Source of the DNA: a virus
Taxonomy: Duplodnaviria; Heunggongvirae; Uroviricota; Caudoviricetes
Reading direction: 5' to 3' (one strand)
IMG/VR virus record: IMGVR_UViG_2713896781_000019
Length of the DNA: 4,820 nt
The notes under the pieces are model-generated. The model was not told where the DNA came from, searched no databases, and saw only the letters and a list, made by a program, of their open reading frames with translations. Made by a program: the position numbers and the translations under genes. Positions within the stretch are counted from its first letter, which is position 1. Each line of letters starts with the position of its first letter. This document shows, piece by piece, positions 2,138 through 4,820 of this stretch.

Positions 2138-2206
2138 ACAATGGAGTTTGTTTTTCACGTCCCTTTTTTACAATATTTCTTGTTTACAACATACAATCTT
2201 CCTTGT
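2138..2206. promoter_or_regulatory. Left operator OL3 (2138..2151), OL2 (2170..2183), OL1 (2193..2206)
   Basis: ACAATGGAGTTTGT, ACAATATTTCTTGT, ACAATCTTCCTTGT: three more 14-bp ACAA-N6-TTGT sites matching the 434 operator family. Confidence 0.85.
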
Positions 2207-2219
2207 AATTTTAAGCCAT
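2183..2219 (+). promoter_or_regulatory. pL early leftward promoter (-35 TTTACA 2183..2188, -10 TAATTT 2206..2211, start near 2218)
   Basis: Sigma70-like hexamers with 17-bp spacing overlapping OL1/OL2. The downstream leader ATCAGCAGGACGCACTGACCACC matches the lambda pL transcript start region from memory. Confidence 0.55.
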
Positions 2220-2282: not shown

Positions 2283-2439
2283 AGCATTCAAAGCAGAAGG
2301 CTTTGGTGTGTGTGATACGAAACGAAGCATTGGCCGGAAGTGCGAATCCGGATTAGCTGCCAATGTGCCATTGCGGGGTGTTTTCGTTCAGGACTACGAC
2401 TCCCACACACAACCAAAGCTAACTGACAGGAGAATCCAG

Positions 2440-2763
2440 ATGGATGCACAAACACGCCGCCGCGAACGTCGCGCAGAGAAACAGGCTCAATGGAAAGCAG
2501 CAAATCCCCTGTTGGTTGGGGTAAGCGCTAAACCAGTTAACCGCCCTATTCTCTCGCTGAATCGCAAACCGAAATCACGAGTAGAAAGCGCACTGAATCC
2601 GATAGACCTTACGGTGCTGGCTGAATACCACGAACAGATTGAAAGCAACCTGCAACGTATTGAGCGCAAGAATCATCGAGTTTGGTATAGCAAGCCAGGT
2701 GAGTTCGGTATAACTTGTCAAGGAAGACAAAAGGTTAAAGGGGAATCCATTCCATTGGCATGA
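2440..2763 (+). CDS. N: Antitermination protein N (107 aa), lambda type with substitutions in the C-terminal half
   Basis: Translation MDAQTRRRERRAEKQAQWKAANPLLVGVSAKPVNRPILSLNRKPKSRVESALNPIDLTVLAEYHEQIESNLQRIERKNHRVWYSKPGEFGITCQGRQKVKGESIPLA. The arginine-rich boxB-binding motif is identical to lambda N as recalled. The track ORF start at 2308 is an in-frame upstream extension across nutL. Confidence 0.92.
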   Translation: MDAQTRRRERRAEKQAQWKAANPLLVGVSAKPVNRPILSLNRKPKSRVESALNPIDLTVLAEYHEQIESNLQRIERKNHRVWYSKPGEFGITCQGRQKVKGESIPLA

Positions 2764-2771
2764 GGTACGTA

Positions 2772-3641
2772 ATGAAGAAGATTGATTACAAGTCCATACC
2801 AAAACCAATAGACTCAGCATCAGAGCGAAAAAAACACAAAAAAGAGGCTGAAAAATTAGCAAATTATATCAGTTTTATTAGAAACAATGCTCACGGCGAT
2901 GGCGACAAGAAGTTGCTTTCAGATGCTCGGACCCAAGCGTTCGGTATACTTCGTAAGCAGATGCAATATCGTCTTCATCCTGGCTACATAATTGAAATTC
3001 GCCCTACTGAAAGACAATTGTTCTTATTAAACTCTGTCTTTGACTTTGTAAACGTAGTTGGAGATCTTATCGACAGGTCTGTAGATAAGGATCCTGATAC
3101 AAATAGTTTTCTTCTAACAAATAAAGAATACTTATATGGTAAATTCGGTATAAACGGATGGCAAAAATATGTACGCTTCTTACGTGCATTCGTTGATGCG
3201 TATAAAAATTCCGACATGATTTATACATATTTGCCTGGTGGTGATAATTGTACGCTTTCGGCAGACAATAGAATATTCATACCTGTACTTGGTCTTGGGC
3301 TGATTAATGCAGTAAATGAAAAAGATGTTATAATTGTTAAGCAGTGGCGAAAATATGAGGGATATAGATATCTGCCATGCTTTGATATATTAAAAATACA
3401 GAATAAATTCTATGTAAAAATTAAATATAAAGAAGATATTTTCTTCCTCAGAAAAAACAAAGATCTTTTACAAGAACTTTCTGGTACAATAGATGTCATC
3501 TTAGGTTCTAGGTTTATAAAAGAACTGAAAGAAAGCAGGTCTTTCTCTCGTGTAGAGATAAGCGAGTCAGAGTTATGGGGTATATCAAATAATCCTGTAA
3601 ACCACGCTCACCAACGAAACCCAAACAAAAAGTGGTCATAA
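2772..3641 (+). CDS. Hypothetical protein (289 aa from ATG 2772, or 293 aa from ATG 2760), strongly AT-rich, no recognisable domain; candidate accessory (moron) gene
   Basis: Long ORF with GAGG Shine-Dalgarno at 2763..2766 overlapping the N stop codon, ATG at 2772; the alternative ATG at 2760 overlaps the N stop as ATGA. GC is about 22-35% in sampled 60-nt lines versus about 50% in flanking phage DNA. The protein is Lys/Ile/Asn/Tyr/Phe-rich with no transmembrane segment, Walker A, HExxH or other motif I can recognise. Confidence 0.75.
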   Translation: MKKIDYKSIPKPIDSASERKKHKKEAEKLANYISFIRNNAHGDGDKKLLSDARTQAFGILRKQMQYRLHPGYIIEIRPTERQLFLLNSVFDFVNVVGDLIDRSVDKDPDTNSFLLTNKEYLYGKFGINGWQKYVRFLRAFVDAYKNSDMIYTYLPGGDNCTLSADNRIFIPVLGLGLINAVNEKDVIIVKQWRKYEGYRYLPCFDILKIQNKFYVKIKYKEDIFFLRKNKDLLQELSGTIDVILGSRFIKELKESRSFSRVEISESELWGISNNPVNHAHQRNPNKKWS

Positions 3642-3642
3642 C

Positions 3643-3664
3643 CCGCTCAGGCGGATTTCATTTT
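3643..3664 (+). terminator. Possible weak intrinsic terminator just after the AT-rich gene
   Basis: Short GC stem CCGC/GCGG with 4-nt loop followed by ATTTCATTTT. The stem is only 4 bp. Confidence 0.3.
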
Positions 3665-3693
3665 CACGCAAACAACAGAATAAACACAGCGCT

Positions 3694-3721
3694 GTGTATT
3701 CATTCCAACGAGTGAATACAC
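3694..3721. repeat. Perfect 9-bp inverted repeat GTGTATTCA-N10-TGAATACAC
   Basis: Arms at 3694..3702 and 3713..3721 are exact reverse complements, with no following T-run. Candidate protein-binding palindrome or RNA stem-loop. Confidence 0.6.
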
Positions 3722-3783
3722 GGAGCAATGTCGCTCGTAACTAAACAGGAGCCGACTTGTTCTGATTATTGGAAATCTTCTTT

Positions 3784-3809
3784 GCCCTCCAAGATGAGGG
3801 CGATTTTTT
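3784..3809 (+). terminator. Intrinsic terminator (GCCCTC-loop-GAGGGC plus T6)
   Basis: 6-bp GC-rich stem (3784..3789 / 3796..3801), 6-nt loop, then GATTTTTTAT. Lies about 20 nt upstream of the next ORF's ribosome-binding site, positionally like a tL1-type terminator readable by N-modified polymerase. Confidence 0.65.
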
Positions 3810-3829
3810 ATCTGTGAGGATATGAACAG

Positions 3830-4057
3830 ATGTCAAACATCAAAAAATACATCATTGATTACGACTGGAAAGCATCAATAGAAATTGAAATCGACCATGA
3901 CGTAATGACAGAGGAAAAACTTCACCAGATTAATAATTTCTGGTCAGACTCTGAATACCGACTCAATAAACACGGCTCTGTATTAAATGCTGTATTAATC
4001 ATGCTGGCGCAACATGCTCTGCTTATAGCAATTTCAAGCGACTTAAATGCATGGTAA
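3830..4057 (+). pseudogene. Hypothetical gene interrupted by IS1; only the N-terminal 74 codons are native, the last sense codon and the stop are supplied by IS1
   Basis: ATG at 3830 preceded by GAGGA (3816..3820). The ORF runs straight into the IS1 inverted repeat, which begins at 4053; TAA at 4055..4057 lies inside IS1. Low GC (about 36%). No recognisable homology. Confidence 0.55.
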
Positions 4058-4067
4058 TGACTCCAAC

Positions 4068-4571
4068 TTATTGATAGTGTTTTATGTTCAGATAATGCCC
4101 GATGACTTTGTCATGCAGCTCCACCGATTTTGAGAACGACAGCGACTTCCGTCCCAGCCGTGCCAGGTGCTGCCTCAGATTCAGGTTATGCCGCTCAATT
4201 CGCTGCGTATATCGCTTGCTGATTACGTGCAGCTTTCCCTTCAGGCGGGATTCATACAGCGGCCAGCCATCCGTCATCCATATCACCACGTCAAAGGGTG
4301 ACAGCAGGCTCATAAGACGCCCCAGCGTCGCCATAGTGCGTTCACCGAATACGTGCGCAACAACCATCTTCCGGAGCCTGTCATACGCGTAAAACAGCCA
4401 GCGCTGGCGCGATTTAGCCCCGACATAGCCCCACTGTTCGTCCATTTCCGCGCAGACGATGACGTCACTGCCCTGCTGTATGCGCGAGGTTACCGACTGC
4501 GGCCTGAGTTTTTTAAATGGCGGAAAATCGTGTTGAGGCCAACGCCCATAATGCGGGCGGTTGCCCGGCAT
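4068..4571 (-). CDS. insB: IS1 InsB reading frame (expressed as InsAB' transposase by -1 frameshift)
   Basis: 167-aa ORF with ...[21 protein letters not shown]...[15 protein letters not shown]..., typical IS1 InsB. It overlaps the insA 3' end in the -1 frame, with the slippery run TTTAAAAAAC on the minus strand. Confidence 0.88.
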
Positions 4572-4765
4572 CCAACGCCATTCATGGCCATATCAATGAT
4601 TTTCTGGTGCGTACCGGGTTGAGAAGCGGTGTAAGTGAACTGCAGTTGCCATGTTTTACGGCAGTGAGAGCAGAGATAGCGCTGATGTCCGGCAGTGCTT
4701 TTGCCGTTACGCACCACCCCGTCAGTAGCTGAACAGGAGGGACAGCTGATAGAAACAGAAGCCAC
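4490..4765 (-). CDS. insA: IS1 InsA (91 aa)
   Basis: Translation [91 protein letters not shown], with zinc-finger and HTH regions typical of IS1 InsA; GTG start. Confidence 0.92.
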
Positions 4766-4820
4766 TGGAGCACCTCAAAAACACCATCATACACTAAATC
4801 AGTAAGTTGGCAGCATCACC

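Follow-up and report, generated by a model that had tools for sequence, protein, structure and literature searches.

Nun of phage HK022 is usually treated as a one-off: a small, disordered protein that combines an RNA tether with a tail that jams RNA polymerase. The exapted TnpB proteins described in the one study consulted have retained their RuvC domain in inactivated or intact form. Here we analyzed a 4,820-nucleotide stretch of Caudoviricetes DNA (IMG/VR record IMGVR_UViG_2713896781_000019; hereafter, the window) and within it gene 48, an open reading frame (ORF) at positions 2772-3641 of the plus strand that an original prediction, made from the letters alone, had singled out as an AT-rich orphan coupled to the antiterminator gene N. 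Its 289-residue product, gp48, ends in a Nun-type RNA polymerase arrest peptide carried on a body with a predicted likeness to TnpB and Cas12, a combination that we found described nowhere; literature searches on gene 48, on Nun-like proteins and on a link between TnpB and Nun returned nothing relevant. Judged from sequences and structural models, what appears to be new is a selected and modular tail, a TnpB-like body without a nuclease, a sister family with a second tail and an invariant placement behind an antitermination element.

The arrest peptide of Nun has been mapped in detail. In the elongation complex as solved by cryo-electron microscopy, Nun is ordered only at residues 87-109, which hold all known arrest determinants (PMC5386594). 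Contacts are made by N97, H98, H100, R102, K106, K107 and W108; residues 102-109 occupy a pocket flanked by the hybrid and the downstream DNA, the C-terminal carboxylate is the pairing partner of R102, and N103, a non-contact control, makes no important contact (PMC5386594). H93 and R94 touch the upstream duplex, with R94A mainly lowering affinity, and removal of the last 13 residues leaves Nun inactive and unable to bind polymerase (PMC5386594). The last 14 residues of gp48 (276-289, VNHAHQRNPNKKWS; positions 3597-3638, plus strand) are identical to Nun 96-109 of HK022 (14/14, by BLASTP and by DNA alignment against nun of phage O276). The tail also matches residues 83-109 of chain N in PDB 6ALG (phmmer, E 1.8e-5), and the C-terminal end of the Nun-like family PHROG 5632 matches the last 20 residues, which are 274-293 of a 293-residue frame opened by an alternative in-frame ATG at 2760 (the start at 2772 is backed by homologues and by the phage 434 annotation). 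Every mapped arrest residue of Nun is kept in gp48 except H93 and R94.

Relatives that are 38-68% identical to gp48 overall all end in V/I-N-H-A-H-x-R-x-x-x-K-K-W(S). Compared with 434, the 14 tail codons of five diverged lineages carry 6-8 differences that are synonymous and 3-4 that are non-synonymous, with replacements confined to Nun positions 101, 103, 104 and 105; one 434-type variant (L022) has an extra replacement, V96I. Because the contact residues are invariant despite this number of synonymous changes, the codon pattern indicates that the tail is under purifying selection for its amino-acid sequence. DNA homology to the O276 nun gene (HK022 type) begins sharply at codon V276 and extends past the stop codon. 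We considered the tail as a chance accident of this mosaic joint and rejected the idea, as the pattern of codon changes argues for selection.

A pattern scan placed the same tail on classical Nun and on many proteins of 88-124 residues with diverse arginine-rich N-termini, found in IMG/VR and in genomes of Escherichia, Shimwellia, Proteus and Photorhabdus. Since this one tail is shared by many short proteins that differ in their arginine-rich motifs, it is a portable module, and the short proteins suggest a diversified set of Nun-like factors that would target different nut specificities among the Enterobacterales. They were seen at loci L034, L036, L045, L046 and L081, and also at L008-L010, L018, L027, L032, L085, L095, L108, L110, L146 and L147; one group carries a lambda-N-type motif (MDAQARRREKRK...).

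The tail codons are joined to an intrinsic terminator directly after the stop (CCCGC-loop-GCGGG plus a T run), and the pair is conserved as a 3' cassette of nun and of the long genes alike, located at 3597-3664 in the window, at 3944-4015 in L003 and after the stop codon in L005, L086, L109, L130 and L145-L149. In every non-434 lineage a canonical intrinsic terminator lies within a few bases of the stop, whereas the 434 and HK022 copies are weaker. The window has a weak hairpin, CCCGC-TCAG-GCGG (3642-3654), followed by ATTTCATTTT (3642-3664 in all, plus strand), which is a degenerate copy of the terminator found directly after the stop in all other lineages and also behind nun. The joint between 434-type and HK022-type DNA coincides with the 5' edge of the cassette.

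We then modelled the rest of gp48 with AlphaFold2 (AF2). A 3-sequence alignment gave a predicted local distance difference test score (pLDDT) of 43 and was discarded; adding sequences of the sister branch described below gave 80.2, with a predicted template modelling score (pTM) of 0.74. In this model residues 11-258 are folded, residues 259-282 have pLDDT <50 and the last ~30 residues are disordered. Residues ~11-65 (2802-2966, plus strand) form a basic helical hairpin (helices 16-38 and 43-65), as judged from pLDDT values of 85-96, alignment and charge; residues 1-70 have a pI of 10, and in the alignment the hairpin is peculiar to the Nun-tailed long branch. Within it lies a K/R-rich stretch, SERKKHKKEAEK (residues 17-28), which is more arginine-rich in L086 and L109; it lacks the consensus of an arginine-rich motif, and AF2 puts it inside the packed hairpin. 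Residues 71-222 (2982-3437, plus strand) are predicted to form a TnpB/Cas12-like WED-REC-WED module, in the order beta strand, helical bundle, five beta strands. Between this module and the tail, residues 223-275 (3438-3596, plus strand) comprise a long helix (223-259), a conserved S-x-S-F-S-R-V-E-I motif (255-263) and a disordered linker, according to AF2 and the alignments.

Foldseek matched the model best to ISDra2 TnpB among PDB entries and, in BFVD, to a mimivirus TnpB-type transposase, so that the structure search proposed as a check in the original prediction did yield a TnpB-like body; its counterpart at the profile level gave weak support. In that comparison, with the N-terminal halves of ten real TnpBs, taken from annotated phage genomes, as the reference, hhalign aligned the gp48 family co-linearly over 140 columns (gp48 72-224 versus TnpB 7-173), pairing the hallmark motifs and ending just before the RuvC-I motif of real TnpBs. 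RuvC itself, with its D-E-D triad (GIDxG and others), is absent from gp48, in which the ~70 residues after the WED module amount to one helix and the disordered tail, and so is the zinc-finger/TNB element, as there are two cysteines only (C160 and C204) and no CxxC pair. The Pfam OrfB_IS605 and HTH_OrfB_IS605 models also gave no match to gp48. The body is best described, on the strength of the model, as a nuclease-less WED-REC module and is probably homologous to TnpB; this 275-residue portion has no characterised relative.

Exhaustive profile searching with HMMER also returned proteins of 213-330 residues (some of ~430-450) that end in ...GGLPSLGKRR. These sister proteins (P0010-P0071) match gp48 at residues ~72-225 only (E 1e-16 to 1e-4) and share an S-x-S-[FY]-[SA]-R-V-[DE] motif ahead of a short basic C-terminal tail. 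They occur in Burkholderia, Paraburkholderia, Janthinobacterium and metagenomes (loci L126-L129 and L141-L144), where they are scattered and outside lambdoid early operons. One copy lies in a BREX-like setting, between BrxB with an unannotated 1153-residue (BrxC-sized) protein and a PglX-like methylase, and another sits beside DISARM-like genes; others are solitary, in DNA rich in insertion sequences or in ordinary chromosomal DNA. A tie of the branch to defence islands, striking at first, was dropped because it failed to hold in further samples, and we claim no function for the branch. The branch had no Pfam match, none of the seven proteins tested matched PADLOC, and a search of the GGLPSLGKRR tail against the PDB gave nothing. 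A broader reading, which we regard as unlikely, is that gp48 and the sister branch are TnpB descendants that lost the nuclease half and deliver interchangeable C-terminal 'warhead' peptides into a core machine, the Nun peptide into RNA polymerase and GGLPSLGKRR into some other target.

The genomic setting of gene 48 bears directly on when it would be made. The oL3-oL2-oL1 operators, the pL -10 element and the transcript start (2139-2218, plus strand) were transferred from the phage 434 annotation (window position equals the position in the 434 record, L001, minus 701), and pL is the sole promoter detected for the unit of N and gene 48. It is followed on the plus strand by a lambda-type nutL boxB stem-loop, GCCCTGAAGAAGGGC (2267-2283; 434 annotation, direct reading and hairpin scan), and by a lambda-type N antiterminator gene of 107 codons (2440-2763; Pfam N36, E 1.8e-26; PHROG 271; 434 annotation). 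The N stop codon (TGA, 2761-2763) overlaps the Shine-Dalgarno sequence GAGG (2762-2765) within the ribosome-binding site of gene 48 (2762-2766, plus strand; from sequence and the 434 annotation), and the ATG at 2772 begins 8 nt beyond the N stop; the frame ends at TAA (3639-3641). A consensus scan found no promoter-like site from pL to the ORF, but it also missed the annotated nun promoter of O276; no promoter candidate with >=7/12 matches lies within N upstream of the gene 48 ribosome-binding site, and a scan for terminators was negative from pL as far as gene 48. An intrinsic terminator of the tL2a type (3782-3811, plus strand; its hairpin, 3782-3803, was the first terminator-like one in our scan, and it is annotated in both 434 and O276) closes the segment upstream of ea10. 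Both the ORF directly after N and its coupling to N in one immediate-early pL unit, as originally predicted, were thereby borne out by the overlapping ribosome-binding site, the 8-nt spacing and the lack of any detected promoter or terminator in between.

A survey of gene neighbourhoods, another of the proposed checks, extended this arrangement beyond the window: N sits 8 nt upstream of the gene 48 homologue in 27 of 29 evaluable viral loci, and the pairing recurs in L005, L130 and L086, lineages of 68%, 48% and 47% identity. A lineage of 42% identity (L003 and L065) is without N and instead has the order pL, putL, gene 48 homologue, terminator, exactly as in HK022. Positions 2934-3008 of L003, in the pL leader, are ~93% identical to HK022-type putL, and the long Nun-tailed gene replaces nun; DNA beyond its stop is unrelated to 434. 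From these comparisons, the family appears always to follow an antitermination element (nutL with N, or putL) within the immediate-early part of the pL unit that does not depend on N. An all-against-all BLAST of the flanks of six lineages found only N and the leader shared upstream and the terminator downstream, and the L003 leader has an ordinary fold (z = -1.4). The long Nun-tailed gene of L109 is followed by an HNH gene and then, two genes downstream of it, by a 95-residue N-like gene (2307-2594, minus strand) whose N-terminus is arginine-rich and distinct and whose C-terminus (...KSRGKSIPLI) is of the lambda type; the order of N followed by the long gene is therefore not universal.

Our preferred reading, which we hold tentatively and at a little under an even chance, is that gp48 blocks the translocation of RNA polymerase as a member of the Nun class with a new chassis, and that the phage's own antitermination-modified polymerases escape it. 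Under this proposal gp48 would be made alongside N upon infection or induction, and its body would dock near the RNA-exit or upstream-DNA face of the elongation complex through an RNA or DNA feature, substituting for the arginine-rich motif and boxB used by Nun. The tail would then enter the cleft of a paused polymerase and block translocation. Early transcription from the phage itself would be spared because its polymerases are N-modified or put-modified, leaving as targets the unmodified complexes that transcribe host genes and/or competing phages and prophages. [quoted passage not shown] When over-produced, Nun is toxic and arrests host polymerase non-specifically, with no need of nut sites; the rpoC alleles R322H, D264G and D329G confer resistance to Nun. 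Polymerase binding by gp48, the nature of its ligand, the identity of its targets and the rule of self-protection are all parts that we infer.

Several observations weigh against this proposal. Nun H93 and R94 are replaced by N273 and N274 in gp48 (both positions vary among relatives), and because R94 is absent and R94A strongly weakens the binding of Nun, the 14-residue tail alone may bind poorly. A folded body of 30 kDa might impede the tail on its way in, and a general arrest factor expressed from pL would threaten Q-dependent late transcription, an escape from which the proposal leaves unexplained. Steric exclusion of the tail by lambdaN is likewise something we infer from published descriptions. 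A Nun-like exclusion role in lysogens is unsupported, as no private promoter was detected by a scan that missed its control promoter. The relation to TnpB depends on predicted structure: the hhalign score was weak (P 0.004, probability 8%), and the gp48 family profile searched against PDB sequences returned noise only and no TnpB match. Finally, Rfam had no match in the window or in L003, and no partner RNA or DNA element came to light.

Each competing explanation shares some of this evidence. The near-obligate adjacency and translational coupling to N, together with an immediate-early location ahead of the first terminator, would also suit a factor whose tail anchors it to elongating polymerase while the body tunes N- or put-dependent antitermination or the lysis-lysogeny decision, and such a modulator would avoid the difficulty of squaring an indiscriminate polymerase poison with productive lytic growth. 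We nevertheless think it improbable, since the conserved tail residues are those that cross-link RNA polymerase to nucleic acids and stop translocation, the L003/L065 lineage has no N at all and lambda manages without such a factor. About equally improbable is superinfection exclusion in the manner of Nun, with low-level gp48 in 434 lysogens, supplied by a weak promoter or by read-through, and a body that recognises particular phages. The tail and genomic slot are those of nun, L003 is organised like HK022, the same slot in lambda holds the exclusion and anti-restriction genes sieB and ral, and the real nun promoter is itself below detection by a consensus scan. Against it stand the absence of any promoter candidate inside N at the threshold given above, the terminator located after hex and upstream of pL, and the overlap of ribosome-binding site and N stop codon, through which translation is apparently coupled to N and would be repressed in lysogens.

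Two further explanations concern the parts of the protein. If the tail-terminator cassette were simply a reused recombination joint, function could reside wholly in the body, for instance in regulation through DNA or RNA binding or in countering defence; the sharp mosaic boundary exactly at V276, the joint travel of tail codons and terminator behind many genes and the different tail of the sister branch all fit such a passenger. Yet frame and amino acids have been kept through the synonymous changes counted above, replacements avoid all residues that contact RNA polymerase or nucleic acids, and the unrelated downstream DNA of L003 excludes recent exchange as the source of its tail, which makes this account quite unlikely. 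Lower still do we place RNA-guided arrest, in which the body, like TnpB and the nuclease-dead TldR repressors, would hold a guide RNA and would bring the arrest tail to complementary DNA. The predicted TnpB/Cas12-like fold and the precedent of TnpB exaptation into RNA-guided transcription regulators speak for it, but the missing RuvC/TNB half is the part of TnpB that grips much of the omega-RNA and makes up the heteroduplex channel. Moreover, gene 48 is packed tightly between N and the terminator, a sister gene at L126 is only 23 and 35 nt from its neighbours, and neither a non-coding flank conserved across lineages nor an Rfam match was found.

Gene 48 is no orphan, contrary to what was first proposed. 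It is CPT_434_48 of phage 434, carries the GenBank label "Nun C-terminal peptide-containing protein" and matches phrog_12139 (PHROG 12139, function unknown) over its full length; among 5426 complete E. coli genomes, 117 carry it, chromosomal every time, and it is labelled "hypothetical protein" in 20/20 listed E. coli records. Intact homologues are known at 38-68% identity, and at this composition a run of 289 codons without a stop would arise by chance with a probability of ~8e-11. The family is nevertheless tiny, with four clusters among 5.8 billion indexed proteins and few additional relatives from an exhaustive HMMER profile search and a DNA-pattern scan; a peptide-pattern scan for the long family in one genome per species gave no confirmed relative. 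Pfam, NCBIfam and PADLOC had no match for gp48, and no Pfam family reached E <= 1 for gp48 or ten relatives. The supposed lack of a recognisable motif likewise did not survive, as the Nun arrest peptide is present and was already noted in GenBank, and homology to a well-characterised lambdoid early gene, named beforehand as grounds for refuting the novelty, applies to the last 14 residues and not to the 275-residue body.

As for composition, gene 48 has a G+C content of 34.6% (30% at third codon positions; 26-41% in 200-nt windows), whereas N is at 48.8%, cI at 46.0% and the left flank at 44.9%. The predicted contrast is real, although its figures need correcting, with flanks at 45-49% rather than ~50% and an ORF mean of 35% rather than 22-35%. 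The description as cargo holds in that this is an accessory gene in the slot where lambda has tL1, sieB and ral. A role in host takeover, or in competition between phages, is compatible with our findings, whereas nothing supported anti-restriction and the suggestion of a defence or abortive-infection effector found no PADLOC match. Both lambda and the laboratory hybrid lambda imm434 have sieB and ral in the gene 48 slot, and the wide use of this hybrid explains how the gene was overlooked for decades.

The window as a whole is a lambdoid immunity region in an orientation reversed relative to the lambda map. The end of O, cII and cro lie in this order on its minus strand; on the plus strand, cI (1054-1686) is followed by the hex ORF (1683-2087), 'repressor protection protein' in the 434 annotation. 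The N-terminus of the hex ORF resembles a cleavable signal peptide, which is odd given the supposed cytoplasmic protection of repressor against RecA. Across positions 2300-4052 the sequence matches phage 434 (OL657226/7) with 100% identity. Between gene 48 and the tL2a-type terminator, the intergenic segment 3684-3721 holds a palindrome, ACACAGCGCTGTGT, that overlaps a 9-bp hairpin (GTGTATTCA...TGAATACAC); this region is shared with HK022-type phages. The ea10/DUF2528 gene starts at 3830 and is interrupted after about codon 74 by a complete 768-bp IS1 (4053-4820, with InsA and InsB ORFs on the minus strand), whose end coincides with the end of the window. Because identity to 434 is lost at 4052 and IS1 begins at 4053, the source is a 434-like element carrying IS1 and distinct from the sequenced 434 isolate.

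Together, these comparisons show a Nun tail that is portable, being attached to many arginine-rich tethers and, in the classical phage 434, to a folded domain of 250 residues. If the tail works as that of Nun does, the locus would provide a natural arrest peptide coupled to a structured and potentially specific targeting domain, discrimination of self from non-self through antitermination-modified versus unmodified polymerases would become a testable idea, and a nuclease-less branch would join the list of TnpB exaptations. On the broader and unlikely reading given above, of gp48 and its sister branch as a new class of TnpB descendants, a body that reads a specific RNA or DNA, possibly with a guide, would make this a sequence-targeted form of transcription arrest, used by lambdoid phages from the onset of infection while N or put modification shields their own polymerases.

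The closest described system is HK022 Nun (P18683; PDB 6ALG; PHROG 5632). Like Nun, gp48 ends in the arrest tail after a disordered segment; its gene likewise lies close to the promoter of the pL operon, ahead of a terminator of the same type, and one gp48 lineage stands exactly in the nun position behind putL. The differences are equally clear. Nun has 109 residues and is mostly disordered, whereas gp48 has 289 and a folded body of ~250 residues, with none of the canonical arginine-rich boxB-binding motif of Nun. Nun is expressed in the prophage from its own promoter, whereas gp48, with no detectable private promoter, is probably an early lytic protein, and it coexists and couples with a lambda-type N whose nut sites Nun would attack. 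Lambda N itself shares the immediate-early transcript with gp48 but has no sequence similarity to it, and the expected effects of the two on elongation are opposite. Among TnpB, Cas12 and Fanzor proteins (IS200/IS605 OrfB), gp48 shares the predicted N-terminal WED-REC-WED architecture and the TnpB hallmark motifs strand-P-x-x-x-Q-helix, 'hPxLG' and 'G-x-[YF]-[YF]-h-x-h'; TnpB has an omega-RNA-like flank, of which none was found for gp48. The sister family has the same WED-REC body with another tail that lacks the Nun motif, and most of its members are without the N-terminal basic hairpin. As with TldR and dCas12f-sigmaE, gp48 would be an exapted, non-cutting protein acting on transcription, but it has lost the whole RuvC and zinc-finger/TNB half where known exapted forms of TnpB keep an inactivated RuvC, and it would act, if at all, by a peptide that invades the polymerase and not as a roadblock on DNA or as the partner of a sigma factor.

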